62,225 nucleotides of DNA from Alphaproteobacteria bacterium (GCA_046881895.1 JBKSMR010000012.1:1-62225), one strand, 5' to 3'. Shown: positions 18,133-61,156, counted from the first letter of the stretch. The notes: a model not told the origin generated them from the letters alone. A program made the numbers and translations.

Positions 18133-19233
18133 ATGAACAAATACCTTAATCAGATTTTATTGGGTGATTGTCTGGAAATAATGCAAGGTATTCCAGATGC
18201 GTCTGTTGACGCGGTGTTTGCGGACCCTCCATATAATTTACAATTGGGTGCAAAAACATTGTACAGACCCGAAGATCAAACAGCTGCCCGTGCAGTGCGT
18301 GATTCATGGGATTCTTTTGAATCAAACACCCAGTATGATGAATTTACCCGTGCATGGTTGGCAGAATGCAAACGCGTGTTAAAGCCAAATGGTGCCATGT
18401 GGACAATTGGCAGTTATCATAACATTTTCCGCGTTGGCAGTATTTTGCAAGATATGGGATTTTGGATTTTAAATGACGTTGTTTGGGTCAAGACGAATCC
18501 GATGCCGAACTTTCGCGGTACACGCTTTACCAACGCACATGAAACATTGATTTGGGCTACGCCGACCAAGACAGGAAAATATACTTTTAATTATGAAACG
18601 ATGAAGAAGTTAAATGGTGGCAAACAAATGCGTTCAGATTGGGATTTAAATATCTGTCTGGGCGAAGAACGTGTCAAAGACAGCAATGGGAAAAGTTTGC
18701 ACAACACGCAAAAGCCATTGGATTTATTACATCGTGTAATATTGGCGTCGACCAAGCCTGGTGATGTTATATTGGATCCATTTATGGGGTCTGGCACAAC
18801 GGCTGCTGCGGCGATTGAGCTGGGACGCCAGTTTATCGGTATTGAACGTGAAGAAGCTTATGTAGATGCTGCACGTAACAGAATTGCAAATGTAAAGCCA
18901 ATAGATTTGTCAGATATCGAAGTATCAAAGCCAAAACGCGATGAAGTACGTGTGGCCTTCAAAGAATTGATAGATGCGGGTTTGTTGTTTGTTGGTCAAA
19001 CATTGGTCAGCCCACGTGGCGAACGTGTGATGATAACGCACGATGGGCAATTAACGCATCAGTTATATGGCAAGGCGTCAATTCATGTTATGGCAGCAAA
19101 ATTACAACGCAGTGTCAGCTTTAATGGCTGGGATTATTGGTCTGCCCAGAAACATGACGGAACATTAGTTCCAATTGACGAATTGCGTCAATATATCAGA
19201 CGTATCAAGTCAGATATGAAACAAGCCGCATAA
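18133..19233 (+). CDS. ccrM: CcrM-type N6-adenine DNA methyltransferase
   Basis: DPPYN motif, FMGSGTT AdoMet motif, and the about 80-aa C-terminal extension typical of alphaproteobacterial CcrM. Confidence 0.88.
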   Translation: MNKYLNQILLGDCLEIMQGIPDASVDAVFADPPYNLQLGAKTLYRPEDQTAARAVRDSWDSFESNTQYDEFTRAWLAECKRVLKPNGAMWTIGSYHNIFRVGSILQDMGFWILNDVVWVKTNPMPNFRGTRFTNAHETLIWATPTKTGKYTFNYETMKKLNGGKQMRSDWDLNICLGEERVKDSNGKSLHNTQKPLDLLHRVILASTKPGDVILDPFMGSGTTAAAAIELGRQFIGIEREEAYVDAARNRIANVKPIDLSDIEVSKPKRDEVRVAFKELIDAGLLFVGQTLVSPRGERVMITHDGQLTHQLYGKASIHVMAAKLQRSVSFNGWDYWSAQKHDGTLVPIDELRQYIRRIKSDMKQAA

Positions 19234-19258
19234 AAAATCCCCATTTGGGGATTTTTTT
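19233..19258 (+). terminator. Rho-independent terminator after ccrM
   Basis: aaaaaatcccc-attt-ggggattttttt. Confidence 0.8.
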
Positions 19259-19317
19259 ATTTCCATCCACAGGCGGGGAATTTGCCTGCGATGGGCGTGA
19301 CGGAGTTTTTGGGTTAA

Positions 19318-19390
19318 AAGTTCCCCTCCGACGCCGGGGCGTTCCGCCCCCGCGGGGAGGGGTGGCCGCAGGCCGGGGTTGGTTTCCCCT
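19318..19390. repeat. GC-rich hairpin-forming mini-element
   Basis: cccctcc ... ggagggg and gccggggc/gcccccgc self-complementarity. GC content is far above the surroundings. Confidence 0.5.
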
Positions 19391-19391
19391 T

Positions 19392-19484
19392 GTCATTGCG
19401 AGCGAACGCAGTGAAGCGTGGCAATCCAGTAATAAAGCCAAATAAAACTGGATTGCCGCGGTCGTTACACTCCCTCGCAATGAC
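19392..19484. repeat. palindromic intergenic element (gtcattgcgag...ctcgcaatgac type)
   Basis: Outer arms gtcattgcgag / ctcgcaatgac and inner arms ggcaatccag / ctggattgcc surround an AT-rich loop. Its translation gives the IASERSEAWQS / SLRSLAMT-type peptides typical of this repeat class. Confidence 0.6.
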
Positions 19485-19522
19485 AAAGCGGAATAAGTCC
19501 TGGTCAGCAGGCACAGGGGAAT

Positions 19523-19621
19523 TTGGTTTGCGTCACGAGATTCGCCGTTGTCCAGCAATGTACAGGAAGGTATTGGCCTGTCATACGAAGCCTTGGCGAA
19601 GTATGGCACTCCCAACGGGAA
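19523..19621. repeat. direct repeat copy 1, including an 18-nt pseudo 3' end of tRNA-Glu
   Basis: 36 nt plus 49 nt are identical to 19669-19767, with a 14-nt divergent core. It ends with tggcactcccaacgggaa, which equals the tRNA-Glu 3' end. Confidence 0.85.
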
Positions 19622-19668: not shown

Positions 19669-19767
19669 TTGGTTTGCGTCACGAGATTCGCCGTTGTCCA
19701 GCAAAATATAGGAAAGCGTTGGCCTGTCATACGAAGCCTTGGCGAAGTATGGCACTCCCAACGGGAA
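19669..19767. repeat. direct repeat copy 2, overlapping the authentic tRNA-Glu 3' end
   Basis: See copy 1. The repeat period is 146 bp. Confidence 0.85.
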
Positions 19768-19824
19768 TCGAACCCGTGTTACCAGAATGAGAATCTGGTG
19801 TCCTAACCGCTAGACGATGGGAGC
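19750..19824 (-). tRNA. tRNA-Glu (anticodon CUC)
   Basis: Reverse complement GCTCCCATCGTCTAGCGGTTAGGACACCAGATTCTCATTCTGGTAACACGGGTTCGATTCCCGTTGGGAGTGCCA folds as a cloverleaf. Anticodon loop is TTCTCAT. CCA is encoded. Confidence 0.85.
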
Positions 19825-24375: not shown

Positions 24376-25104
24376 TTAATTTCTCTTTTTTCCGTAACGT
24401 GATAAAAATTTATGTATTTGTGAATTAGTTACAGTTTGCACATCTGGTTTTTGTTCTATTTTTGTAATATTTGTAATTTTTTGCGGTATTTTTGTTTTAA
24501 CAGCGTACAGGTTTTGATTTTCACCGGTGGCCAAGAAGACTTCTTTTAATAAGTTGTCATACTTTTGTCGGAATTCCGGATTGCGTTTGTATAAAAAATC
24601 AGAAGTGCGTTCAACAAGCCCTGAATGACTATTAGGATTAAATTTTTTTATACGTGAAAACTTGCCATTTACGGATAATAGCAGCGTTTTATTTTCAGCT
24701 ACGCTGATTTTTATGTTATCAAAACTTATGTTTGTATTTTTTGCTGCGTCCATAATCATATCAAACAAAAAGTCTTGCATTGCTTCGTAATCAAGTTGCC
24801 ATTCTGGGTATTTTACATTGTTAAAATCAACTTTGCTTTCGGCCAAATATGCTTGTTTGTTTGGTGTGTTTTCCCAAGTGTCTTGCATTGTATCGATATG
24901 GTTTTGTGCAGCCTGATGATTGGTAAAGAAATAATAGCCATTACTTTGTCCACCCAACGCATTTTGTGATGAATTAAAGTAACCAGATTGTTTTATTTGA
25001 TTAAAAGTCGCATTGTCTATTGGTGTGATAACATGATACAAAGTAATATCTTTTGATTTTACTTTATCTGTTGCGGATTTTAATTTTTCTGCTGTGGTAT
25101 TCAT
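24376..25104 (-). CDS. hypothetical protein (242 aa) with weak ART-like motifs
   Basis: ORF. A tataat box sits directly upstream of the longer-ORF ATG at 25146, so the Met at 25104 is the preferred start. Motifs LYHVIT and NGYYFFTNHQAA. Confidence 0.45.
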   Translation of the reverse strand: MNTTAEKLKSATDKVKSKDITLYHVITPIDNATFNQIKQSGYFNSSQNALGGQSNGYYFFTNHQAAQNHIDTMQDTWENTPNKQAYLAESKVDFNNVKYPEWQLDYEAMQDFLFDMIMDAAKNTNISFDNIKISVAENKTLLLSVNGKFSRIKKFNPNSHSGLVERTSDFLYKRNPEFRQKYDNLLKEVFLATGENQNLYAVKTKIPQKITNITKIEQKPDVQTVTNSQIHKFLSRYGKKRN

Positions 25105-25195
25105 AGTTTTTTGTCTTTGTTTAATTGTTGGTAAAGATTGTAACATAACATTATAAAAAAGTCCATTTTATAAGAAAAATACCCCCTTGTAGGAC

Positions 25196-25216
25196 ATTTT
25201 TGCTCTCTGGAATGCG
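25196..25216. repeat. 21-nt direct repeat, left copy (atttttgctctctggaatgcg)
   Basis: Identical 21-mer occurs at 32048-32068. Confidence 0.8.
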
Positions 25217-25233
25217 TGTGGGCGAAACGCGAG

Positions 25234-25872
25234 TTATTTTGGCGTGTGTTTTTGTAGTGCTATTGTATGTAAATCAGAAACAAGATTTTTGCCTTTATAA
25301 TTTTTTATAAATTTTTTAACCAATTCAATTTGGTTTATAAAATCATCAATATTGATATACCAGGCATAGTCATATTTTGCAAATGGGTCAAATGCGATTG
25401 TATCAATTTCTGTGCGATGTTTTGTTATCCATTTATAAACCGTTTCAAAATCTATATATAAAAACATGTGATTGTGTGCAATATTATGTATTTCACGAAT
25501 GGATAAAAAAGTACTAAAAAATTTGGTATTATCTGTTGTTTTTATTTGTGGAATAACATTTGCATTTTTCATATATAAATAACTGTCATTTTCACAATCT
25601 GGTAATTTGATAATATATTCATCATTTTTACCAGGTGGACAAATATAAATCGGAACAAATATTTTTGATTGTAATAACAGAGCAAGAAAATATGCTAAAC
25701 TTTCATTGTCTTTAAATGTCATAAATTCAGCCAAAGCACTTGTTAATGTCCCGCCTAAATAATCAAAATCCTTTTCTTTGCGAATAATACAGTAATCAAA
25801 TTCATATTCAAAATCTTTGAAATGATTTTCGTCCATTATGTATGTTGATAAAGATTTTGTCGTCTTTTGCAT
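25234..25872 (-). CDS. hypothetical protein (212 aa), downstream partner of the PD-(D/E)xK protein
   Basis: ORF begins 2 nt after the upstream stop. The start is uncertain; 25836 is an alternative. Confidence 0.45.
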   Translation of the reverse strand: MQKTTKSLSTYIMDENHFKDFEYEFDYCIIRKEKDFDYLGGTLTSALAEFMTFKDNESLAYFLALLLQSKIFVPIYICPPGKNDEYIIKLPDCENDSYLYMKNANVIPQIKTTDNTKFFSTFLSIREIHNIAHNHMFLYIDFETVYKWITKHRTEIDTIAFDPFAKYDYAWYINIDDFINQIELVKKFIKNYKGKNLVSDLHTIALQKHTPK

Positions 25873-25874
25873 TT

Positions 25875-27083
25875 TTAATCTGTTATTGTTTGTAGCCAGG
25901 TTTCTAAATCTTTTAATTTTAACGATTGCCCCAGTCCATTGCGACTTTTGCAAAATTGTTTTTTATTTAATTTTGATAATTGTTCGCCAACATCTTTATC
26001 ATTTAACCAAAATCCATAGTAATATCCAAATACCGGAACACCATTGGCAATATGTTTTAATAATAATTCTTTGTTTTGTGATAACGATTTCTGTGCAAAA
26101 TTATCCCAATTCCAATGTTTGCTGTTATTCGAGCGTTTAGTGTGATATGGATAATATTCCAACGCTAAAATATCAGTATCTTTTATCCCGAATTTATCCG
26201 TCTTTTTCAAAATATTGTCCCACCATTCACAATATTCACGATAAATATGTAAATTCATCCCAGTCGGTTTATAAAAACCATCCTTGTCCATTGGATATTC
26301 TGCCAACCGTTTATAATATTTTGCATCCCCCCCAGGATTACATAAAAGAATTATCAACTTTGGCGATTTTTCATTACCTATTCGTGATACTTTATAATCA
26401 TTTGACATGTTTACTATCCTTTTTTGTGGAATTTCTACAAACAACGATTTGAACAAACCGTTTTTATCACCAGTGTCGCAAAAGTTACACCACAGGAATT
26501 CATAATCATTTTTTATTTCAAACCCAGGATGTTGTTTAATCCATTTCGGAATATGGTTTAAATCGTTATGTTGCCATTTTAAATTGCCATAACGGTATTT
26601 CCCTTGCACAGTTCTAAAAGGATAACCTTTTGAATTATTTTTCCAATTCCCAGTCCAATAAAACTTATCGTTAGTTATCATAATGCATACCCCAGAAACA
26701 ACTTGATTGTTTTCTACTAGTTGTTCTATGCGATTTATATCTTTCCAAAAATTATAACCGTTTATATCTACGGCATCGTGGTTTTTTAATATCTTTTTTA
26801 TTGGTAAACCAGTAAATCCGTATAATTGTTCTGACGGAATAATTTTGGTCTTATATTTCAGTTCAATTGGGTATAGACATTGTTTATAAACCAGCATAAT
26901 ATCAGTATAAATTATACGACCATTTTGCTCTATTGGAAACTCGAGTAAAATGGTTGCGGTGCCATTAAAAATTTTTTCTAACTCCATTGCAAAAGAATGT
27001 TGAAAGTCCGCCTCTGACACAAAAAAACGATTTTTATTTTTCAAATTTAAAAATGCTTTTTTTATATTTTTGATAACATCCAT
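25875..27083 (-). CDS. PD-(D/E)xK nuclease-fold protein with unknown C-terminal domain (402 aa)
   Basis: The N-terminal third has E...D...ExK spacing (SEADFQHSF ... YTDIMLV ... YPIELKYK). The C-terminal half has LIILLCNPGGD and YYPYHT motifs of unclear affinity. Confidence 0.55.
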   Translation of the reverse strand: MDVIKNIKKAFLNLKNKNRFFVSEADFQHSFAMELEKIFNGTATILLEFPIEQNGRIIYTDIMLVYKQCLYPIELKYKTKIIPSEQLYGFTGLPIKKILKNHDAVDINGYNFWKDINRIEQLVENNQVVSGVCIMITNDKFYWTGNWKNNSKGYPFRTVQGKYRYGNLKWQHNDLNHIPKWIKQHPGFEIKNDYEFLWCNFCDTGDKNGLFKSLFVEIPQKRIVNMSNDYKVSRIGNEKSPKLIILLCNPGGDAKYYKRLAEYPMDKDGFYKPTGMNLHIYREYCEWWDNILKKTDKFGIKDTDILALEYYPYHTKRSNNSKHWNWDNFAQKSLSQNKELLLKHIANGVPVFGYYYGFWLNDKDVGEQLSKLNKKQFCKSRNGLGQSLKLKDLETWLQTITD

Positions 27084-27143
27084 ATCTTGCTCCTGTCACC
27101 GAAACCAGTGTAAAACAATAAAACAAAATTGTAAATATTATTT

Positions 27144-27236
27144 CGTTTCGCCCGCACACCCCAACCACACTTCGCCTCTACGAGGCTTCGTGTGGCAGGC
27201 CACACAAGGCGAGAAGCAGACGCGAAGTGTGGTTGC
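27144..27236. repeat. palindromic element containing an inverted fragment of the tRNA-Gln 3' end
   Basis: 27159-27218 is the exact reverse complement of 32387-32446 (60 nt). Outer arms are aaccacacttcgc / gcgaagtgtggtt. Confidence 0.85.
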
Positions 27237-27371
27237 ATTTGACATGCAATTCGCGAACCGATTTGATGGAAATTGGACAAGAAATAGACGAATTTAAAGA
27301 TAAATTATGTGTAACAGGTTTATTGTAATTTTTCTACTTTTATGGTACTATGCACGCAGGAGATATGAATA

Positions 27372-27920
27372 ATGGAACCGATAATTATTGACGATTTGGT
27401 ATTAAAACAAATTCCTGGAACACAAGAATTTGCACAGGAAATATACGATATATTCACATCAGATATTGATACTTTCAAACATTGGTTTGAAGGTGGTATG
27501 TGGAAGTCTGTGGATGAAGTATTAAAGTATTATCAAAGCAAGGAACAAAATAATGATTCCAGATGGAAATATTCTATGTATGGCATATTCAAAAATGGTG
27601 AATTATTGGGTGAAATCGGATTGTCGGGAATAGACACAAAACACCAAACTGCTGAAATTGGGTATTGGCTAAAGAAATCTGCACGTGGTATGGGAATTAT
27701 TGATAAGTTAATTCCAATTATAGAAGAAATTGGATTTGAAAAATATAATTTAAGGAAACTGAATATCTGGTGTGATGACGACAATATTGCGTCACGCAAA
27801 CATGCTGAAAAAAATGGATATGCCTTGGAAGGTGTTCAACGCGAACGCAAACTCTGGCCAGACGGTTCGATACATAGCACAGCGATGTTTGGAAAATTAA
27901 AATCTGAATGGAAAAAATAG
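27372..27920 (+). CDS. GNAT-family N-acetyltransferase (RimJ/RimL-like)
   Basis: The pattern ...GEIGLSGID...AEIGYWLKKSARGMGI...NIASRKHAEKNGY matches the GNAT acetyl-CoA fold. SD aggag. Confidence 0.8.
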   Translation: MEPIIIDDLVLKQIPGTQEFAQEIYDIFTSDIDTFKHWFEGGMWKSVDEVLKYYQSKEQNNDSRWKYSMYGIFKNGELLGEIGLSGIDTKHQTAEIGYWLKKSARGMGIIDKLIPIIEEIGFEKYNLRKLNIWCDDDNIASRKHAEKNGYALEGVQRERKLWPDGSIHSTAMFGKLKSEWKK

Positions 27921-28085
27921 TTCGAAAGTGGCGAGAAATTGCCACTTTTTTTTATTTTACCTTTCGAACTCGCTTGAAACATTAGAAAACAAAAACTCGC
28001 CTTTATTGGAGGGCTTGTCTATCTTGGTTGGGGTGTGCACAATTCGCGAACCGAATTGTTGGAGGTTGGACAAGAAATAGATAAG
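27919..28085. repeat. cassette boundary element, copy 1
   Basis: Contains agttcgaaagt...actttcgaact arms, then ttgaaacattagaaaacaaaaac, a (degenerate) hairpin, cttggttggggtgtg, the gcacaattcgcga..gaattg hairpin and ggacaagaaatag. Confidence 0.85.
27928..27953 (+). terminator. Rho-independent terminator after the plus-strand GNAT gene
   Basis: gtggc-gagaaatt-gccac followed by a T8 run. Confidence 0.7.
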
Positions 28086-28110
28086 ATGAAACAGAAATTT
28101 TATTAAAATA

Positions 28111-28656
28111 TTATCTTTCTTTTACATAAATCAAAGAATCACATTTACCAACGCATTTTGCCCAAGAGGCCATTGGTAATACTTTTTCTAATTTATACTT
28201 ATTACGTTTTGCTAGATTTTCTGAATGTGTATTTCCATTGTCTATATCCAATACAATCTTGCCAAAACCAAATTTGAATAATTCTGTTTCTAATGCTTGC
28301 AGTGCTTCACTCATAAATCCGTTGCCATTTGCAGATTTTATCAACCAATATCCTATTTCACATCCATTGTCTTGAATATTAAAAAAACGAATTCGCCCAA
28401 TAATATTATCTTTATGGTAAATATAAAAACACATGCCTTGGTTATCTTTAATTTGATTGGCGCGTTTTGTCAAATATGCAATCACATCATCAGGGGTTTT
28501 TAATTCACCAAAATGTCCCTGCCAGTCCATAAAATAATCACGATTTTGTTCAATAATGTTAAAAAGTTTTATTGCGTTTTCCTTTGTTGGTAATACAACC
28601 TTTAATACCAATCGTGATGTTTTGATTGTTTGCGGAAAATTCGATAAAGCTTTCAT
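28111..28656 (-). CDS. GNAT-family N-acetyltransferase (RimJ/RimL-like)
   Basis: GRIRFFNI...CEIGYWLIKSANGNGFMSEA...NTHSENLAKRNKY. Upstream are gtgatataat and SD aaaagga. Confidence 0.8.
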   Translation of the reverse strand: MKALSNFPQTIKTSRLVLKVVLPTKENAIKLFNIIEQNRDYFMDWQGHFGELKTPDDVIAYLTKRANQIKDNQGMCFYIYHKDNIIGRIRFFNIQDNGCEIGYWLIKSANGNGFMSEALQALETELFKFGFGKIVLDIDNGNTHSENLAKRNKYKLEKVLPMASWAKCVGKCDSLIYVKER

Positions 28657-28690
28657 AAAATTAGTCCTTTTCAGAAATTATATCACAATT

Positions 28691-28855
28691 GGTTCAAAAA
28701 TGACAATTTTTTGACATTTTTTAAAACCTAACTTTCGAACTCGGTCAAAACATTAGAAAACAAAAACCCGCCTTTATTGGCGGGCTTGTCTATCTTGGTT
28801 GGGCTTGATGCACAATTCGCGAGCTGAATTGCGGGAGATAGAACAAAAGATTAAA
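28691..28855. repeat. cassette boundary element, copy 2
   Basis: Same architecture as copy 1. The tRNA-like core is tggttgggc. Confidence 0.85.
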
Positions 28856-28863
28856 GATTATTT

Positions 28864-29670
28864 TTATCTCTCGCGCTGAACCAATTTTTCTTTCTGTCTG
28901 GCAATTTCTACAATTCTAAAATCATAAAAATCGTGTAACCGCTTTATCCATTTTTCTTTTTCTGATTTTGTTAAGCGACGAGGAACATAACCTTTCATAA
29001 ATTCTTGTTCTATATGTTTTAATTTTTCAGCATCAACATGTGTTTTCATTGGTGACAATGTTTTATCAGTTCTTACCACATTATTTTGTCTGAATACAAT
29101 ATACGAATCATCACCACCGCATTCTGTAAAGTTTTTATAAGAAAAACCGTCTATGCCAACTGATTCAAAAAATCTTATCATTCTTTGAAAAAACAAATTT
29201 TCTGCGTTCGCTTTATCATACAAAGATTCATAAGATATCTCTTGTTTGATTTTGCCATCGTCAATAGATTGCGAAATAAAATCATATTGATAAGGTAATT
29301 TTTTTAACGCCACGAATTCGCATTTTTTTTGGATGTTATCCCATTTTTTCAAATTATCTATATCTTCAATAATGGTTTTATCCAATAAAAAGGCTAAAAT
29401 TATTGCCTGCCAATCTTCCACATAATGATTATTCAAGTCAGGTATTTCTAGATAAATTCCTTTTCTGAAATGTACCGGTATAATTTTTGGTTTGTTTATA
29501 TCTATATTTTTATCACGTTTCCATTTGCCTTCATTTAACACCGTTTTAGCAGAAGACTCTGTGCCGAAATGGGACAACGGAAAAAAATAATCAAAATCAT
29601 AATAAGTACCATGAAAACAAGTTATAGCCTTACCAGATTTATCGTATAAAAATTCATTATTACCTGTCAT
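28864..29670 (-). CDS. hypothetical protein (268 aa), possible H-Y-[E/D] ADP-ribosyltransferase fold
   Basis: Motifs CFHGTYYDFDYF, RKGIYLE and DDSYIVFRQNNV. The first 28 codons of the track ORF lie in the boundary repeat, so the start was moved to ATG 29670. Confidence 0.5.
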   Translation of the reverse strand: MTGNNEFLYDKSGKAITCFHGTYYDFDYFFPLSHFGTESSAKTVLNEGKWKRDKNIDINKPKIIPVHFRKGIYLEIPDLNNHYVEDWQAIILAFLLDKTIIEDIDNLKKWDNIQKKCEFVALKKLPYQYDFISQSIDDGKIKQEISYESLYDKANAENLFFQRMIRFFESVGIDGFSYKNFTECGGDDSYIVFRQNNVVRTDKTLSPMKTHVDAEKLKHIEQEFMKGYVPRRLTKSEKEKWIKRLHDFYDFRIVEIARQKEKLVQRER

Positions 29671-29691
29671 GCCAGTAGTTATACCATAAAG

Positions 29692-29853
29692 AGTTCGAAA
29701 ATACAAATTTTTTACAATTTTCCACAATCGAACTTTCGAACTTGCTTGAAACATTAGAAAACAAAAACCCGACTTTATTGGCGGGCTTGTCTATCTTGGT
29801 TGTGGTGTGTGGGCAATTTGTGAGCTGAATTGGTGGAGATTGGACAAGAGATT
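29692..29853. repeat. cassette boundary element, copy 3
   Basis: Same architecture as copy 1. The tRNA-like core is tggttgtgg. Confidence 0.85.
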
Positions 29854-29874
29854 AATAAAGTTAAAGATATATTA

Positions 29875-30462
29875 TTAAACTAAATTTCGGCTTTGAATCC
29901 ATGATAAATAATGATTTTTATTGTCCAGTTTATAAGCATACTTTTTTAATGGCTTGAAATTATCAATTATCTTTATAACTTCTTTCAACACGTTATCTTT
30001 GCTTTTTCCTGCGACATCAACCATTACTTCATTTGGCAACAACTTACGACTTTTTATTACCGAATTTGACCGTTCAACATATTCCGGGCGGAACAAACCA
30101 CCCTCATTATTTTTTCTGTGTTCCATTTGTTTCTTTATCTGCTTTGGGTCACTGGAAACAAGTCTGATTATTATAAATTTATATCCATGAAAAATCTTTG
30201 GTAGTTCTCTTGCCCTTATATCATCAAAATCCAAGGCAACAATGTTCCGCAATCCTTTGTCATAAAAGAATTTTATTTGTGCCAAAGTGTTTTCCCAACA
30301 TAACTTTTCTTCATATAAACCAATGTCTTTCACTTTCTTTGGAATAATAAACTCTGGAACCATATTCTGTTCAATATATACACCTTTGTAGTGCTGATAC
30401 AATTCCTTTGCCAACGTTGTTTTGCCGACAGCACTTGGACCAATAACAAATATAAAATCCAT
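29875..30462 (-). CDS. P-loop NTPase / small-molecule or nucleotide kinase-like protein (195 aa)
   Basis: Walker A IGPSAVGKTT at the N-terminus. Size and layout match adenylate/shikimate-kinase-like proteins. Confidence 0.55.
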   Translation of the reverse strand: MDFIFVIGPSAVGKTTLAKELYQHYKGVYIEQNMVPEFIIPKKVKDIGLYEEKLCWENTLAQIKFFYDKGLRNIVALDFDDIRARELPKIFHGYKFIIIRLVSSDPKQIKKQMEHRKNNEGGLFRPEYVERSNSVIKSRKLLPNEVMVDVAGKSKDNVLKEVIKIIDNFKPLKKYAYKLDNKNHYLSWIQSRNLV

Positions 30463-30488
30463 AGCTTTTACACCTTTTTATAAACCGT

Positions 30489-30518
30489 ATTATATCATAA
30501 AAAGTTCACAAGTGGCAA
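30489..30518 (-). promoter_or_regulatory. cassette promoter (TTGCCA-18 nt-TATAAT with TG extension)
   Basis: Minus strand reads ttgcca cttgtgaactttttatga tataat, followed by SD aaaggtg and ATG 30462. The same TGATATAAT box recurs upstream of 28656 and 31945. Confidence 0.5.
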
Positions 30519-30664
30519 AAATTTGCGATTTTCCACAATCGAACTTTCGAACTCACTTGAAACATTAGAAAACAAAAACCCGCCTTTATTGGCGGGCTTG
30601 TTTATCTTGGTTGGGGTGTGTGTGCAATTTGCGAGCTGAATTGCGGGAGATTGGACAAGAGATT
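30503..30664. repeat. cassette boundary element, copy 4
   Basis: Best-preserved copy. Contains the cccgcc-tttatt-ggcggg hairpin, cttggttggggtgtg, the gcaatttgcgagctgaattgc hairpin and ggacaagagatt. Confidence 0.85.
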
Positions 30665-30704
30665 GACGATATAAAAAAGAAATCTATCACTTATTCAAAT
30701 GATT

Positions 30705-31382
30705 TTATTCGTATTTCTTCAGCAAATCTTTCCATGTCTGTGGTGCATCCACTTCATCAAAGTAAGCATTCAAAAAACTAACCAAGGTTTGATGTTTTTT
30801 CTCTGCATATTTGCGTCCCGGTTCTGTTAAGCACATATCGCGCAAATGAAAAATTTTAACAAAAAAGTGATTTACACACGGATCGACTTTTGATTTTCTA
30901 TACTTTTCGGCATCCATTTCTTCTGGGAAATAATCTGGATCAAAGAAAGGTTGACCCGTTCCAGAACGATATTCTATGCACCGTAACAGACCTGTACATC
31001 CTGATGCGTCACACATATCAGCATCGGATACAATAGCACCTTCGATACCATATGCAGCAATACCCTTTAACCGTTTACTGTATCCAATAGTTTTTACAAT
31101 ATTTATACATTTTTCGCAGAATTCGGCATCAAATCCAGAACCAGACAATATGCGTTTGGTATTGGTCATCAGACGTTCAGATTCTTCACCAAACAGTTTA
31201 TAATCATCACAATCATGCAATAATGCAGCAGCAGCCACCAAATCACGATTAGCAGATGTAATTTCATCACAAAATTTCATTGCCGTATTATAAACGCGAA
31301 ACACATGTTTATCATCATGCCCGTTAAAGTTATTTTTAAGTAATTCAATCACTGCATTTTTTATATATTCAATACCTGTCAT
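30705..31382 (-). CDS. HD-domain metal-dependent phosphohydrolase (YedJ-like size)
   Basis: HDDKHVFRV ... AALLHDCDD motifs. Start set at ATG 31382 after SD aaaggtg. Confidence 0.65.
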   Translation of the reverse strand: MTGIEYIKNAVIELLKNNFNGHDDKHVFRVYNTAMKFCDEITSANRDLVAAAALLHDCDDYKLFGEESERLMTNTKRILSGSGFDAEFCEKCINIVKTIGYSKRLKGIAAYGIEGAIVSDADMCDASGCTGLLRCIEYRSGTGQPFFDPDYFPEEMDAEKYRKSKVDPCVNHFFVKIFHLRDMCLTEPGRKYAEKKHQTLVSFLNAYFDEVDAPQTWKDLLKKYE

Positions 31383-31471
31383 ACAAACACCTTTATTGCG
31401 GTATGACATGCTATCATAAAAAACTATATATGTCCAAATGTTATTAAAAAAGTTCGAAAGTTGAAAAAAAT

Positions 31472-31945
31472 TTACCTTATAAATTCTGCTTTTTTATTAA
31501 TTCTTTTTATTTTTTCTAATAATTCTGGTAAATATTGTTCGTATGCTTTGGACCAACGTAATAATTTAAACAATGTGACTAAATTTTCTTTATGGTTCTT
31601 AGGTTCTATACCCAAAATTTTTTTAACCCAGCGTTTAAAAATACGGTATTGGCGAACCCGAGTTGATGGTTTTAAAATGATGATTCTATCTGATTGTTCT
31701 AATATAGGTATAATCCAGTCTTTTGTATAAATCCCTTCAATAACCCAATTATCATTTTCGGATAAAATTTTATCACGCAGAGCAAACCTTTCTTCTTTCG
31801 GTCGTTCACAATTAAAACAATTTTTTTCGTTTATCCATTTTATATCATCTAAATCAAAATGAGGAATTTTTAATTCTTTAGAAAGTTTTTTTGCGTATGT
31901 TGTTTTTCCGCTTCCCGGACCGCCAGAAATAAAGATTTTTGCCAT
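31472..31945 (-). CDS. P-loop kinase-like protein (adenylate-kinase/FlaR-like, 157 aa)
   Basis: MAKIFISGGPGSGKTTYAKKLSKELKIPHFDLDD. Confidence 0.6.
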   Translation of the reverse strand: MAKIFISGGPGSGKTTYAKKLSKELKIPHFDLDDIKWINEKNCFNCERPKEERFALRDKILSENDNWVIEGIYTKDWIIPILEQSDRIIILKPSTRVRQYRIFKRWVKKILGIEPKNHKENLVTLFKLLRWSKAYEQYLPELLEKIKRINKKAEFIR

Positions 31946-31975
31946 AATTCATGCCTTTACAGCAAATTATATCAT

Positions 31976-32037
31976 GAAAAAGTTCGAAAGTTGAAAAAAA
32001 TTTGCAATTTTCCACAATCAAACTTTCGAACTCGTCA
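31976..32037. repeat. cassette boundary element, partial copy (left module only)
   Basis: aaaaagttcgaaagttgaaaaaaatttgcaattttccacaatcaaactttcgaactcg. An even shorter remnant lies at 31446-31476. Confidence 0.8.
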
Positions 32038-32047
32038 AAGTCTTATA

Positions 32048-32068
32048 TTTTTGCTCTCTGGAATGCGC
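32048..32068. repeat. 21-nt direct repeat, right copy
   Basis: Identical to 25196-25216. Confidence 0.8.
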
Positions 32069-32084
32069 ACGAGACCTTGATAAA

Positions 32085-32330
32085 TTATTTCCAAAAATGT
32101 CTTTTTGCGAATGCGTATCCGGAACCTGTTTTAAGATATTGTTCAAATTCCAACGCGGCATCTTTTGAACTAAACGCAAAATAATTTACCAATTCCCAGG
32201 GTTTATATTTTGCCGTATGTATTGAATATCCTGCATTATGTTGCTTTAGTCGTTTTTTTAAATCATCAGTTTGACCGATGTATTTTTGTTCTGGATAGGA
32301 AATGCTTTTTATAAGATAGACATAAAACAT
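32085..32330 (-). CDS. GIY-YIG nuclease-family protein (81 aa)
   Basis: MFYVYLIKS...KYIGQTDDLKKRLKQHN is the GIY-YIG signature. Confidence 0.75.
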   Translation of the reverse strand: MFYVYLIKSISYPEQKYIGQTDDLKKRLKQHNAGYSIHTAKYKPWELVNYFAFSSKDAALEFEQYLKTGSGYAFAKRHFWK

Positions 32331-32369
32331 TTGATTTTTATTCCCGTCCGCCTACGCCAAGGCTACGGT

Positions 32370-32446
32370 GGACACTACTTCGCCTATGCTTCTCGCCTTG
32401 TGTGGCCTGCCACACGAAGCCTCGTAGAGGCGAAGTGTGGTTGGGG
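32370..32446. repeat. palindromic trailer element abutting tRNA-Gln
   Basis: Arms acactacttcgcc / ggcgaagtgtggt with an internal gtgtggc..gccacac hairpin. The right end overlaps the tRNA 3' end. Confidence 0.8.
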
Positions 32447-32511
32447 CGCACGGATTCGAACCATGATAAAGAGAACCAAAATCTCTTGTCCTACCATTAG
32501 ACGACACCCCA
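32438..32511 (-). tRNA. tRNA-Gln (anticodon UUG)
   Basis: Reverse complement TGGGGTGTCGTCTAATGGTAGGACAAGAGATTTTGGTTCTCTTTATCATGGTTCGAATCCGTGCGCCCCAACCA folds as a cloverleaf. Anticodon loop is TTTTGGT. CCA is encoded. Confidence 0.88.
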
Positions 32512-56179: not shown

Positions 56180-58579
56180 TTAATTGACCACTATTGGTGG
56201 GAAGCAATCACCACCTGTTTCCGGACAACAATTAAATCCTTGGTCGCCCATATCTGTATATATTTCACCAGCACAGCAGCCATTTACATCTGGCAAAGAG
56301 CCATCAAAACAAGTTATAACTTCTTCTACGGGTTGTGTTTGCTTATCGTATGGATTTTCAATATTTCCATCTGCATCGTATGAAACGCCAATCATTTCGT
56401 TGTATGCATCCGCATCTTTTACTTCGTATTTCTTTTTTTCTTCGTTATATGTTGTCGCACCTTCGTATTGGTTAGCATACTGTTGTTGTTGCTCATTTCT
56501 ATATGCTTCGTATTGCAACGCTTTTTTGGACTGATAATTCAGCGATTCACAATACAACTTTAATGTCAGACAAGAATAACCTGATTTAGACGTTGTTGTT
56601 GCACCTTCTGCACTGAAGCATTCTTCTGGTGCACGATATAGACCATCAGAATCCCTGTCGCATAATCCGTCCATTTGGAATGAACGTGCCTGACCAACCC
56701 AAGAAGCGTCATTCGCTTTTTCTAGACCCATATCTTCTTTTGTTATACTCCTGCGAGGATTTTTTCCATACTCTTTAATCGCACATTTTTTGTCACTGCC
56801 ATTTGGATTATCTTCAGACAATGGTGCACCACAGGTTACCATTAAATCAACAGGTGAATATACAGTAATACGAGTACCTGCTGCGATTGTAAAAGGTGGT
56901 ACAGTATTATCCATCATGTCAACCATCAGTTTTTGTGCAACCTGGTTCCATGCGGTAATAATTTCATTCTTGGCCAGTTCTGATGAACGCATTGTTCCGC
57001 TTTGTACAACCGTATTATTATCTAAATCGATTTGATTAACAAATGCATCTGCAATTGGGTTTATTAAGTTTATCGTTGCTGGTACAAACGCGGTCAGCAT
57101 TGGCATAAAGAACTGTTCCAAATAGTCTGTGCTGCCACGTCCAGGTACACCAATACGACCCTGAGAATCGCCTGAATATGGGTCGTGTCCATCTAAAAAG
57201 TTGAATTCAACGCCATTTGGCAGAATAAACTGGTACCAGTTTATATCCATTCGTCCGATTGTCTGATATGGTCCTGGGACTTTACCCGTTACATAACCCA
57301 ATAATAAAGTTCCTGTTGGGATTATAATATTGCGTCCACTGTCTGAATATACGTTTCTGTCGACTGTTGCACGCACAGGAACGCCACGTTCTAATGCATC
57401 AATATCTGCACGAATATCGGATACGATTGTTGCAGGAATTGGTTTATATTGACGTAATAAAAACTGACGGTCGTATATTTGTGATGAAACAACAACATTT
57501 TCATCGCCGGCAGAAGATCCATAAGAAACGTCTGAAGTTTTTTTCTTCAAAGATATACTCCCCATTTTGCCGATACCACTTGTAATTCCTTTAATTTCAT
57601 CGGTGGTCAGTTGTCGTGCTCGATTCACTTCACGTACAGCAGGTGCATTTGACAGTTCGGGTAATGTACCATTTGCAACTGCGTTAAAGCCAATATGCTC
57701 TGCATCTGAGCCGATACGTTTGCCAGAATTATTTATATCAGTGATTATGCCATTATCAGGATTGTATACACCCGTCGCTTTGTTGCAATTTATATCAGAA
57801 AAAGGATGGAATTTATATGAGCCAGCCTCTGGTTTAATCCAGCCGATTTGACGACCATAGTTATCGTATCCAGGAAATGCAAAGTCAGAACATGCCTCTG
57901 GTATAGATGGCGTCACAGGTGTTTCTGGGATTTCAAATTCCGGTGCAATAGATTCTATATCTTTTTTAATTTCGTCTTGGACAGAAATTGGTTCTGCAAC
58001 AGTTTCTATTTCTTCTTCTGTTTCATCGTACTGTTCTGGTTCAGGTTCTGTTTCTGCAGGTGCGACAACAACCGTTGGTTCCGGATTTTTTGCACTAAGT
58101 GTAAACACTATCTTACTTGTCTGCGACATCTGGTCTGATTTTGCAGCATCATACCAATCGATGAATATTGTTGCCAGTTCTGTATCTAATGCAACAGTTG
58201 GTTCATAGGTTGCATCTATCACGCATTCTGTTTTTGTGTTTACTGTTTGTACTCTTCTACACGTGTCTGTAAAGCCAAAGCCATCAACAGCTTTGTGCCA
58301 TCTGACATTTTGTATTTTTACCTGTGTGTTTGCAGATACTTTGATTGTTGTTTCTTTCTTATCGCCGACAATAACATTTGACCAATCTACTGCATCTGGT
58401 GTTATTTTTAATTCAGCAACAACAGTATCTGTGTCAGGTAACTTTGACTTTTTGTCACTGCTAAACAACAGTGTCAGCAGTATTAAAACAACAACAAACG
58501 CTGCCGCCAGTAACAGCCACTGAATATGCTTTGGTGTACTTTTTTTCAGGTCTATAAATTGTTGTTTTATTTTTGACAT
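56180..58579 (-). CDS. virB10: type IV secretion protein VirB10/TrbI-like with long Cys-rich C-terminal extension
   Basis: N-terminal TM segment, an acidic and Pro-rich linker, then the TrbI/VirB10 core (IPATIVSDI...IIIPTGTLLLGYV...GTRITVYSPVDL). A further 215 aa follow the core. Start set at MSKIKQQ. Confidence 0.85.
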   Translation of the reverse strand: MSKIKQQFIDLKKSTPKHIQWLLLAAAFVVVLILLTLLFSSDKKSKLPDTDTVVAELKITPDAVDWSNVIVGDKKETTIKVSANTQVKIQNVRWHKAVDGFGFTDTCRRVQTVNTKTECVIDATYEPTVALDTELATIFIDWYDAAKSDQMSQTSKIVFTLSAKNPEPTVVVAPAETEPEPEQYDETEEEIETVAEPISVQDEIKKDIESIAPEFEIPETPVTPSIPEACSDFAFPGYDNYGRQIGWIKPEAGSYKFHPFSDINCNKATGVYNPDNGIITDINNSGKRIGSDAEHIGFNAVANGTLPELSNAPAVREVNRARQLTTDEIKGITSGIGKMGSISLKKKTSDVSYGSSAGDENVVVSSQIYDRQFLLRQYKPIPATIVSDIRADIDALERGVPVRATVDRNVYSDSGRNIIIPTGTLLLGYVTGKVPGPYQTIGRMDINWYQFILPNGVEFNFLDGHDPYSGDSQGRIGVPGRGSTDYLEQFFMPMLTAFVPATINLINPIADAFVNQIDLDNNTVVQSGTMRSSELAKNEIITAWNQVAQKLMVDMMDNTVPPFTIAAGTRITVYSPVDLMVTCGAPLSEDNPNGSDKKCAIKEYGKNPRRSITKEDMGLEKANDASWVGQARSFQMDGLCDRDSDGLYRAPEECFSAEGATTTSKSGYSCLTLKLYCESLNYQSKKALQYEAYRNEQQQQYANQYEGATTYNEEKKKYEVKDADAYNEMIGVSYDADGNIENPYDKQTQPVEEVITCFDGSLPDVNGCCAGEIYTDMGDQGFNCCPETGGDCFPPIVVN

Positions 58580-58611
58580 ACGCGAACCCACAGATTTAAT
58601 AATGTTTATAT

Positions 58612-61082: not shown

Positions 61083-61156
61083 AGGGGCATAGTTCAACGG
61101 TAGAATATCGGTCTCCAAAACCGCGGATGAGGGTTCGATTCCTTCTGCCCCTGCCA
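61083..61156 (+). tRNA. tRNA-Trp (anticodon CCA)
   Basis: AGGGGCATAGTTCAACGGTAGAATATCGGTCTCCAAAACCGCGGATGAGGGTTCGATTCCTTCTGCCCCTGCCA. Sits in the conserved position upstream of secE-nusG. Confidence 0.92.

Follow-up and report, generated by a model that had tools for sequence, protein, structure and literature searches.

Short copies of the 3' end of a tRNA-Gln gene recur along a contig of a gut alphaproteobacterium, which raises the question of whether they are chance matches or the traces of repeated insertions behind this tRNA. We therefore analyzed the whole 62,225-nt stretch of DNA (hereafter the window) and compared it with related contigs, designated by L numbers, all of which are metagenome assemblies. 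ARAGORN and Rfam placed tRNA-Gln(UUG) at 32438-32511 on the minus strand, and the plus-strand TGGTTGGGG at 32438-32446 is therefore the reverse complement of its last 9 nt, CCCCA-A-CCA, with the CCA encoded. The 9-mer was found exactly four times, at 27159-27167 (other strand), 28025-28033, 30608-30616 and 32438-32446, all within 5.3 kb, against 0.48 expected, and 0 of 100 shuffles reached four. When one mismatch was allowed, the window-wide count was not significant (16 against 11 expected). However, the two one-mismatch copies of the original prediction, at 28796-28804 (TGGTTGGGC) and 29797-29805 (TGGTTGTGG), fall in the same aligned column of four boundary repeats of about 190 nt, B1 to B4. 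The observation of tRNA-end copies at fixed positions in the boundary elements is thus confirmed. The inverted copy belongs to a 77-nt inverted repeat (I1), 27152-27228 versus 32377-32453, which is 94% complementary. In addition, there are more joints than were first listed, with a degenerate core, TGGTTGCAT, at 27229-27237 and a variant core, TGGAATGC, at 32059-32066 and 25208-25215.

Organization of the array behind tRNA-Gln

To define the anatomy of the locus, we followed it from the tRNA outward, over about 25208-32437. The last 9 nt of the tRNA would act as the chromosomal attachment site, the attB or attI-like end of the array; the 3' half of the tRNA is 100% identical in all relatives. 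At the first base after CCA starts a GC-rich element (R5, 32335-32437, minus strand), which forms a long hairpin, CACTTCGCC..GGCGAAGT, followed by a second hairpin (fold z-score -4.1), and has no Rfam match. The same element follows a left arm plus core at 27168-27228 and in L034, and a related element follows tRNA-Glu. The cargo of the cassette nearest the tRNA is a gene with a GIY-YIG nuclease domain (32085-32330, minus strand, 81 aa; PF01541, E = 4e-16), also present in strain L047. At 32059-32084 (minus strand) lies a tRNA-like left arm (..ATCAAGGTCTCGTGC) with the variant core GCATTCCA (plus strand TGGAATGC, 32059-32066). The same arm, variant core and GAGAGCAAAAA right flank occur in L008, L028, L030/L033 and L047, with a GAGAAT variant in L050, and in L028 the same arm carries either CCCAACCA or ATTCCA. 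The right arm of the next unit (31960-32058, minus strand) consists of GAGAGCAAAAA.., an inverted pair of AGTTCGAAAGT boxes (32022-32032 and 31981-31991) and the promoter region of a P-loop NTPase/kinase-like gene (31472-31945, minus strand, 157 aa; Pfam). This gene is flanked by a 27-nt perfect direct repeat (31447-31473 and 31977-32003), and strain L047, 98.8% identical, lacks exactly 31474-31976.

The following cassettes are separated by the boundaries B4 to B1, all on the minus strand. An HD-domain phosphohydrolase gene (30705-31409, minus strand; Pfam) precedes B4 (30490-30684), in which we identified a left arm (30617-30684), the core (30608-30616), a terminator (30576-30599), a AGTTCGAAAGT box (30543-30553) and a promoter (30518-30489). 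A P-loop NTPase-like gene (29875-30462, minus strand, 195 aa), supported by weak AAA-type Pfam hits only, precedes B3 (29679-29873). The core of B3 at 29797-29805 reads CACAACCA on the tRNA strand, and this C-to-A core variant recurs in L009, L013, L030, L032 and L036. A gene of unknown function (28864-29754, minus strand; ORF of 296 aa, likely real start near 29672), without any Pfam, NCBIfam or PADLOC hit, precedes B2 (28678-28872; core 28796-28804, terminator 28764-28787, promoter 28706-28677). A GNAT acetyltransferase gene (28111-28656, minus strand; PF13302, E = 3e-18) precedes B1 (27915-28100; core 28025-28033). On the plus strand, 27924-27949 in B1 doubles as the terminator of a second GNAT acetyltransferase gene (27372-27920; Pfam), inverted relative to the other cargo genes.

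At the far side of the array, the left arm of the last direct cassette (27229-27306, minus strand; a repeat family with five copies) carries the degenerate core ATGCAACCA, which is TGGTTGCAT on the plus strand. It is followed by the second copy of the R5 palindrome (27168-27228; fold z-score -5.0), lying between two inverted cores, and by an inverted left arm (27137-27167, plus strand; ..TTTCGCCCGCACAC) with the core CCCCAACCA at 27159-27167, the inverted copy of the original prediction. The same arm of 22-30 nt occurs in L008, L009, L027, L028, L030, L034 and L036. The next unit (25216-27136, minus strand) holds a 402-aa ORF (25875-27083) and a SseB-like gene (25234-25953). The N-terminal 223 aa of this ORF have a predicted PD-(D/E)xK nuclease fold, based on a structure model (pLDDT 93.9) with weak matches (best E = 0.013) to nuclease-fold structures such as RecU, HincII, MGME1 and Cas4. 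The gene pair also occurs outside any cassette context, in L053. The distal end of the array is a left arm (AACTCGCGTTTCGCCCACAC; 25208-25245, minus strand) with the variant core GCATTCCA (25208-25215). It is followed by a GAGAGCAAAAA flank and by a 256-aa gene (24376-25146), which has a homologue in L027 between its tRNA-Glu and tRNA-Gln (65.7% nt identity) and is therefore taken as backbone.

Read on the tRNA strand, each full boundary is attP-like. A conserved left arm of 30-70 nt ends in a mimic of the tRNA 3' end (..CGCCCGCACAC-C[C/A]CAACCA) and is followed, from the first base after CCA, by the right arm of the next cassette, with an intrinsic terminator, two inverted AGTTCGAAAGT boxes 41 nt apart and a sigma-70 promoter that overlaps them, and then usually by one cargo gene. 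The promoter-like sites show 11 of 12 consensus matches plus an extended -10, and the two best promoter hits and the matching terminators in 7.7 kb lie in B2 and B4. The AGTTCGAAAGT box was found 10 times against 0.9 expected, and occurs in inverted pairs at a recurrent spacing of about 41 nt in many of the 14 loci that carry it.

Junctions in related contigs

We compared the chromosome side of the locus between relatives. In more than 20 related contigs, homology with the window ends exactly at 32438, the CCA end. The neighbours of the tRNA are HD, MarR and an RND efflux pump in all relatives. L047, L048/L049 and L050, which are 94.8-97.8% identical to the window over the HD+MarR flank (95.6-98.8% over longer alignments), carry three different sequences directly after CCA. 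The comparison with empty tRNA-Gln sites, put forward beforehand as a check, could be made with L013, which has a single HD cassette directly after the tRNA, homologous to window 30608-31475 (83.6% nt identity), with the alignment ending exactly at the core, 30608. At the far end of this cassette, behind a left arm and a CACAACCA copy, sits the trailer (flank family R2) that is tRNA-adjacent in L009, L015, L027 and L048, whereas the tRNA of L013 is followed by the R1 arm of the cassette. In addition, several independent assemblies end in or at the tRNA.

We next examined 41 non-redundant joints. A conserved left arm of about 30 nt pairs with unrelated right flanks that start at the first base after CCA, and the right-flank families R1-R5 occur both next to the tRNA and next to left arms in different genomes. 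The information content is 1.0-2.0 bits at about 15 of the last 18 positions before the cut, whereas after the cut it is mostly 0.5 bits or less, with three positions at 0.9-1.2 bits. The unit 25216-27169 is 97.9% identical to one in L036 (3042-4997) that has different flanks on both sides. All six metagenome hits that contain any tRNA have tRNA-Gln, with either a UUG or a CUG anticodon.

An absence of similarity to the tRNA beyond the 9-mers had been set in advance as the result that would count against serial integration, and on this point the window gave only weak support. Identity to the tRNA is limited to 8-9 nt, and its extension beyond the core was not significant by a shuffle test (p = 0.05-0.57 for B1, B3 and B4, the three boundaries tested). 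The 8 nt just upstream of the core differ from the tRNA largely by transitions, most cleanly in the Lb form of the arm (CCGTGCGC in the tRNA, CCGCACAC in Lb). By contrast, joints with 13-25 nt of tRNA identity were found in relatives, as distal copies in L028, L032 and L034, and also in L048/L049.

Finally, we searched for the enzyme. No integrase, resolvase, transposase or HUH gene was found by Pfam among the 50 large ORFs scanned in the window, nor among 38 ORFs from the variable regions of relatives, and the enzyme is therefore hypothetical.

Origin of the cassettes

Taken together, the comparative results support the interpretation of the original prediction, namely repeated insertion of very small units into the 3' end of tRNA-Gln, each leaving a partial tRNA duplicate. 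We consider with good, although not complete, confidence that the 9-mers are the crossover cores of a family of miniature cassettes without a recombinase gene, inserted by site-specific recombination exactly behind the encoded CCA end, so that successive insertions pile up as a tandem array. The anatomy of the boundaries, the base-exact breakpoints at the core, one occupied site compared with unoccupied sites, the reassortment of left arms and right flanks at the core and the turnover between near-conspecific strains are direct results of our analysis. The mechanism, however, is deduced. A recombinase encoded elsewhere in the genome would recognise the conserved left arm plus core, of which ..CCGTGCGC-CCCAACCA of the tRNA would be the natural version, and would exchange DNA within or just after CAACCA, probably through circular intermediates, with new cassettes entering next to the tRNA; no circular or excised form was observed. 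A tyrosine recombinase working on an asymmetric site, as IntI does on attI/attC or Rci on sfx, seems to us the most likely enzyme class, but this assignment is tentative, and an HUH-type nickase that cuts after CCA is the main alternative. Two observations do not fit simple serial integration. Units flanked by inverted cores (window 25208-27167, and units in L008, L009, L027, L028, L030, L034 and L036) are not explained by integration with a non-palindromic core, and the strain difference at the 157-aa gene lies between 27-nt direct repeats rather than at a core, so that ordinary homologous recombination also reshapes the array.

This last observation speaks for another, in our view unlikely, explanation without any dedicated recombinase, in which the boundaries are portable promoter-terminator modules descended from the tRNA-Gln trailer, cassettes are gained, lost and shuffled by RecA-type recombination between them, for example after natural transformation, and the 9-mer is simply where homology ends. 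The left arm is long enough to serve as homology (about 30 nt, nearly identical in many copies), a ComEC-type competence gene is present, and a break of homology at the end of a perfectly conserved tRNA is expected for any variable region next to a tRNA. However, the joints between the tRNA itself and R1-R5 share only 8-16 nt with the left arm-core joints, yet the same flanks swap between tRNA and left arms repeatedly and always at the same base. Homologous exchange would not keep a tRNA-end mimic at the end of every cassette across genomes whose flanking regions are only 74-83% identical, and the boundaries within the window, only 76-84% alike, are poor substrate for RecA. Chance 9-mers inside a repeat family unrelated to the tRNA, for which only the non-significant one-mismatch count could be invoked, are already contradicted by the number of exact copies, their fixed position in the repeat and the occurrence of the family next to tRNA-Gln in every related contig that contains a tRNA.

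Movement as single-stranded DNA by an HUH enzyme acting in trans (IS200/IS605, IS91/ISCR or relaxase type), recognising sequence 5' of its nick site and cutting right after ..CCA, would explain why nothing on the 3' side is conserved, and we regard it as unlikely but not negligible. The site is strongly one-sided, with the right flank changing from the very first base after CCA, no target-site duplications were seen, T4SS genes are present in the window, and some left arms form a hairpin 15 nt before the cut (B1, z = -3.1), as the tRNA T-arm would. On the other hand, the commonest left arm (..AACTCGCGTTTCGCCCGCACAC) has no hairpin of more than about 3 bp on inspection, the hairpin in B4 is weak (z = -1.8), the left ends of the units are unrelated terminators rather than a conserved second end, and the ORFs scanned included no HUH gene. 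Thus, although insertion 3' of ..CCA fits, the related subterminal hairpins at both ends of IS200/IS605-type elements are not observed. Non-autonomous transposons with terminal inverted repeats (TGGTTGGGGTGTGCGGGCGAAA ... TTTCGCCCGCACACCCCAACCA), moved by a DDE transposase and resembling the tRNA end incidentally or through target preference, appear very unlikely. Units with inverted ends of 18-22 bp starting TG and ending CA do exist in L008 (perfect 22 bp), L009, L027, L028, L030, L034 and L036, and at window 25208-27167. However, no target-site duplications were seen at the ends inspected by eye (L008, L027), B1-B4 have one core per boundary, all in direct orientation, the same cores join to the tRNA end, and no transposase was found among the ORFs scanned. 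Xer-dependent modules (dif/pdif) are not supported either, since by inspection the joint consensus shows no dyad and no ATAA-N6-TTAT pattern of a 28-bp site with 11-6-11 XerC and XerD arms.

If the model of cassette insertion behind tRNA-Gln holds, bacteria would have reached the integron logic, an ordered and exchangeable library of single accessory genes at one site, by a second route built on a tRNA end, in a class where integrons have not been reported. Strains 95-98% identical in the flank differ at this site, the same cassettes appear in different genomic contexts, and one cassette is shared between genomes whose flanks are only about 74-78% identical, so that the locus would be a live source of gene-content variation in animal-gut bacteria. 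The site is short, well defined and one-sided, which makes finding the enzyme tractable, and such an enzyme could be useful as a tool. The cargo consists of acetyltransferases, kinases, nucleotidyltransferases, methyltransferases, phosphohydrolases and nucleases, classes that commonly modify small molecules or nucleic acids; roles in resistance or defence are plausible, although neither was shown here. It is possible, although less likely than not, that this is a previously undescribed gene-capture platform in gut Alphaproteobacteria, functionally parallel to an integron, with the CCA end of tRNA-Gln as fixed insertion site, a one-sided tRNA-end mimic of about 30 nt as cassette site and self-contained expression units under a shared pair of operator-like boxes. 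In this view the recombinase acts in trans, may be of a new kind or a recruited housekeeping enzyme, also generates invertible units and acts at other tRNA ends; tRNA-Glu in this window shows the same type of insertion.

Comparison with known systems

An integron-like way of collecting genes at a tRNA end does not seem to have been described, and we compared the array with its closest analogues, none of which fits fully. As in integrons, including CALINs (attC clusters without an integrase), there is an ordered array of mostly single-gene cassettes, each ending in a recombination site conserved on one side only, and cargo of small accessory enzymes (GNAT, nucleotidyltransferase, kinases, methyltransferase). 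New units would, under the model, enter at one fixed chromosomal site, although the order of entry was not tested. The cores GTTGGGG and GTTGGGC match GTTRRRY (R') at 6-7 of 7 positions. The attC criterion, an imperfect palindrome of 57-141 nt with R'' (RYYYAAC) and R', was assessed by eye only, and the result points both ways: no R'' partner or overall palindrome beyond the terminator stem was seen in B1-B4, but the 79-nt element at 27159-27237 has an attC-like outline. In contrast to integrons, no intI gene lies beside the array, the Pfam scans of 50 large ORFs of the window having found no Phage_integrase or other recombinase family, the fixed site is the 3' end of a tRNA gene, and the cassettes, rather than being mostly promoterless and expressed from a common Pc, each bring their own promoter, terminator and shared pair of operator-like boxes.

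Tandem integrative elements at tRNA genes, such as the tycheposons of Prochlorococcus (bioRxiv 10.1101/2020.12.28.424599), also insert at a tRNA gene that stays intact, are separated by partial tRNA copies, and are described as pushing older elements outward to build a variable island. However, tycheposons carry their own tyrosine or serine recombinase, often replication genes, and kilobases of cargo, whereas the units found here are 0.15-1.95 kb (mostly 0.8-1.0 kb), have no recombinase and share an attP-like boundary with only an 8-9-nt tRNA match. The CIMEs and site-specific accretion described for streptococcal ICE/IME (PMC5704250) likewise involve elements bounded by att sites but lacking recombination and transfer genes, in tandem at one attachment site and presumed to be moved by an integrase supplied in trans. 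CIMEs are decay products of ICEs or IMEs and sit next to a related element that supplies the integrase. No parent element was found here by viral-contig scans and plasmid and phage searches; descent from, and mobilisation by, a related ICE or IME using the same att site was not assessed, only 62 kb of the genome being at hand. The units of the present array are uniform, promoter-bearing single-gene modules shared between species. Finally, shufflons, in which Rci acts on sfx sites, share the asymmetric site, with a short core plus one conserved arm and the other arm free, and the segments flanked by inverted sites. However, shufflons only invert segments within the 3' end of one gene, with rci adjacent, whereas here no rci-like gene is present among the ORFs scanned and insertion and loss dominate.

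The tRNA-Gln locus and the anatomy of the cassette boundaries

The 62,225-bp contig belongs to a metagenome-assembled Alphaproteobacteria bacterium, and its HD protein is identical to NCBI MFQ6729594.1. It carries ordinary chromosomal genes such as mraY, ftsW, murG, gyrA and an RND efflux pump. VirB10/TrbI-like and VirB9/CagX-like genes (56180-60144 and 61083-61156) lie next to tRNA-Trp, so that part of a type IV secretion system is also present. tRNA-Gln(UUG) is located at 32438-32511 on the minus strand with its CCA encoded, and the plus-strand 9-mer TGGTTGGGG of the original prediction is therefore the reverse complement of the last nine bases of this tRNA. The region from about 25.0 to 32.4 kb has 28-36% G+C, compared to about 39% around it.

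We first tested whether the 9-mer is enriched. Exact TGGTTGGGG occurs four times against 0.48 expected, none of 100 shuffles reached four copies, and all four copies lie between 27159 and 32446. When one mismatch was allowed, the count over the window was unremarkable. However, the two one-mismatch copies that had been singled out beforehand occupy the same aligned column as the exact copies in four boundary repeats of ~190 nt, B1 (27915-28100), B2 (28678-28872), B3 (29679-29873) and B4 (30490-30684), which are 76-84% alike. The inverted copy at 27159-27167 is part of a 77-nt inverted repeat with the tRNA end and the GC-rich element that follows it (27152-27228 and 32377-32453, 94% complementary), which brackets 5.1 kb of the array and could invert it. 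Taken together, these results confirm the observation that copies of the tRNA-Gln 3' end are found in the boundary elements.

Read on the tRNA strand, each boundary is composed of a conserved left arm (..TCTTGTCCAATCTCC..CAATTCAGCTCGCAAATTGCACACACAC), the core CCCAACCA, AGATAGACAA, an intrinsic terminator (GCCCGCCAATAAAGGCGGGTTTTTG), TTTTCTAATGTTTCAAG, two inverted AGTTCGAAAGT boxes, a promoter whose -35 box lies between the two boxes, and then one gene. The two best promoter matches and the matching terminators in 7.7 kb lie in B2 and B4. The box motif occurs 10 times against 0.9 expected, and 9 of these copies lie in the array. In the window (27919-32032) and in the related loci L009, L025, L027, L028, L030, L032-L034 and L037, the boxes occur as inverted pairs (AGTTCGAAAGT-N30-ACTTTCGAACT) at a recurrent 41-nt spacing, bracketing the -35 box of the cassette promoters that we inspected. 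This spacing recurs in contigs from several different species, suggesting that one DNA-binding protein controls, or helps recombine, all cassettes. Since a MarR protein is encoded next to the tRNA, we considered it as the box-binding regulator, but its own intergenic region has no TTCGAA box and there is thus no support for this role. About 55 nt before the core, left arms (for example 30655-30670 in the window, and those of L025 and L037) contain a sequence fitting the IHF consensus WATCAANNNNTTR (TATCAATCTCTTG in L025 and TATCAATTTCTTG in L037, with one or two mismatches in the window copies), which lies next to a conserved ATTGGACAAGARATWGA motif.

The cargo of the array consists of two GNAT acetyltransferases, two P-loop NTPase/kinase-like proteins, an HD phosphohydrolase, a GIY-YIG protein and one gene of unknown function. 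Searches with NCBIfam, PADLOC and PHROGs gave nothing above curated cut-offs. An Rfam search at a permissive threshold found nothing for the boundaries or the GC-rich elements.

The array runs from the tRNA to about 25208. A variant core GCATTCCA with the right flank GAGAGCAAAAA closes the GIY-YIG cassette (32059-32066) and the last unit (25208-25215), and it recurs in the related contigs L008, L028, L030 and L047, and in L050 with a slightly different flank. A degenerate core ATGCAACCA sits at 27229-27237. Beyond 25208 lies a 256-aa gene (24376-25146) with a homologue in L027 between the tRNA-Glu and tRNA-Gln of that contig (65.7% nt identity), and we therefore take it as backbone.

Comparison with related genomes

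To compare the locus between genomes, we retrieved it from relatives through homologues of the flanking HD gene, and we scanned metagenomes for the left arm plus core. The tRNA 3' half is identical everywhere, and the homology of every contig with the window ends exactly at 32438, the CCA end. Independent metagenome contigs (L012, L014, L017, L021, L051 and L052) end inside or exactly at tRNA-Gln, as expected if populations are mixed for what follows the tRNA. Contigs that are 94.8-97.8% identical to the window over the HD+MarR flank carry three different sequences directly after CCA. L047 resembles the window, with the GC-rich element plus GIY-YIG, whereas L048 and L049 have a 180-nt gene-less unit ending ..GTGTGCGCCCCAACCA, followed by an R1-type arm, and L050 has yet another arrangement.

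A comparison with empty tRNA-Gln sites in relatives had been asked for in the original prediction, and such a pair was found. L013 carries a single HD cassette directly after the tRNA, homologous to window 30608-31475 at 83.6% nt identity, and the alignment stops exactly at the core. At the far end of this cassette, after a left arm and CACAACCA, comes the trailer CAGTTAACAAAATG..GGGGCATTTTTT, which is directly tRNA-adjacent in L009, L015, L027 and L048. In addition, right-flank families are found both next to the tRNA and next to left arms, in different combinations in different genomes. These families are R1 (AGATAGACAA..), R2 (.AGTTAACAAAATG..), R3 (AAAATTCA.CCGGC..), R4 (A.ATTCAAAC..) and R5, the GC-rich hairpin. 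In 41 non-redundant joints, the information content is 1.0-2.0 bits at about 15 of the last 18 positions before the cut, and mostly 0.5 bits or less after the cut, with three positions at 0.9-1.2 bits. The site is strongly one-sided, and the break is at the base after CCA. Units are also portable, and the unit 25216-27169 is 97.9% identical to one in L036 that has different neighbours on both sides.

All six metagenome hits that contain any tRNA contain tRNA-Gln, with either the UUG or the CUG anticodon, and several of those contigs have distal copies with 13-25 nt of identity to their own tRNA, T-loop included. Two metagenome hits, L026 and L029, looked like chance hits, in a GC-rich and apparently coding context. 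In the window itself the likeness is more limited. That similarity to the tRNA might not extend beyond chance 9-mers had been named in advance as the result that would overturn the reading, and beyond the 8-9-nt core the similarity of the boundaries to the tRNA was not significant by a shuffle test (p = 0.05-0.57 for B1, B3 and B4). The eight bases upstream of the core differ from the tRNA largely by transitions, most cleanly in the Lb form of the arm (CCGTGCGC in the tRNA against CCGCACAC in Lb). Within the window this criterion is therefore only narrowly escaped, and the case rests on the comparative data.

A second tRNA seems to have received the same kind of insertion. tRNA-Glu(CUC) (19750-19824, minus strand) is followed, from the first base after its CCA, by a GC-rich element related to the one after tRNA-Gln, and a 99-nt direct repeat (19523-19621 and 19669-19767, 94% identical) includes an 18-nt copy of the tRNA-Glu 3' end. 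By contrast, L013 and L027 have ordinary AT-rich sequence after this tRNA. An adjacent GC-rich block (19240-19520), locally well above the ~39% G+C of its flanks, contains an inverted repeat at 19362-19405 and 19471-19514 (..CATTGCGAGCGAACGCAGTGAAGCGTGGCAATCC..), has no Rfam match and looks like a miniature repeat element. An N6/N4 DNA methyltransferase with a RAMA domain (18133-19233) sits directly beside this block and tRNA-Glu, and may be another acquired gene.

Search for a recombinase and alternative readings

No integrase, resolvase, transposase or HUH protein was found among the large ORFs of the window, nor among 38 ORFs from the variable regions of relatives. The cargo in those regions is SDR, methyltransferase, NUDIX, isochorismatase, RNase T, Bro-N, hexapeptide transferase, Pol-beta nucleotidyltransferase and ASCH. 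We then searched for a parent element, and none was found in the viral, plasmid and phage collections. Scans of viral contigs for the left arm plus core, and for arm-core-R1, found nothing, and blastn of B4 against the plasmid and phage collections gave no match. A viral-contig scan for the last 16 nt of the tRNA gave 9 hits. The one that we examined (L041, the same sequence as L038) lies inside an ORF, and we take the others, which sit in unrelated, mostly GC-richer contigs, as chance. A scan of a genome collection for the 20-mer AAACATTAGAAAACAAAAAC, invariant in B1-B4, returned only 7 single chance hits.

The 402-aa ORF (25875-27083) next to the inverted core was considered as the recombinase, since it sits where intI would sit in an integron. 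Its N-terminal half belongs to a separate family of ~225 aa with a predicted PD-(D/E)xK nuclease fold, and this family, together with the downstream 179-aa gene, also occurs in a genome context with no cassette motifs. We treat this ORF as cargo, although a nuclease role is not excluded. It appears to be a fusion of the ~225-aa protein with a ~180-aa protein, the two being separate adjacent genes in the locus L053 and probably in L030, and the reading frame is interrupted in L036. We also considered the left arm as the remnant of the 3' end of a gene, since its conserved distal part reads as ..AELREIGQEID.. with apparent third-position changes. This reading was rejected because one copy has an in-frame stop, no upstream gene body exists, and the conserved part is a DNA motif (ATTGGACAAGARATWGA with a 12-nt repeat, next to the IHF-consensus-like TATCAATCTCTTG). 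This segment is absent from many left arms.

Some arrangements do not fit simple serial integration. Many loci have units flanked by inverted cores with the left arms facing inward, namely window 25208-27167 and units in L008, L009, L027, L028, L030, L034 and L036, and wherever the tRNA is on the contig, the core nearer the tRNA is the inverted one. At 27159-27237, a 62-nt GC-rich palindrome sits between two inverted cores (fold z-score -5.0). Furthermore, the 157-aa P-loop gene that is present in the window is bounded by a 27-nt perfect direct repeat (31447-31473 and 31977-32003) and not by cores, and the 98.8%-identical strain L047 lacks exactly the 503 nt between the repeats.

Comparison with known systems

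Overall, the interpretation that small units were repeatedly inserted at the 3' end of tRNA-Gln is supported. The break at CCA, the strain-level differences, the occupied and empty sites and the reassortment of flanks were observed, whereas the data identify neither the recombinase nor the origin of the inverted cores. The finding is best described as site-specific accretion at a tRNA gene with integron-like properties, a system that our literature searches did not turn up. As in integrons, there is a fixed site with one-sided cassette sites and single-gene units, but the defining intI gene is absent, no attC palindrome was found in B1-B4 on inspection by eye, and the cassettes are not promoterless. 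For tycheposons, tandem integrative elements at tRNAs, neighbouring elements are described as separated by a partial tRNA, with newcomers pushing older ones outward (bioRxiv 10.1101/2020.12.28.424599), but those elements carry their own recombinase. CIMEs share the lack of an integrase but are decay products lying next to a parent element (PMC5704250). The sfx sites of shufflons share the one-sided site.
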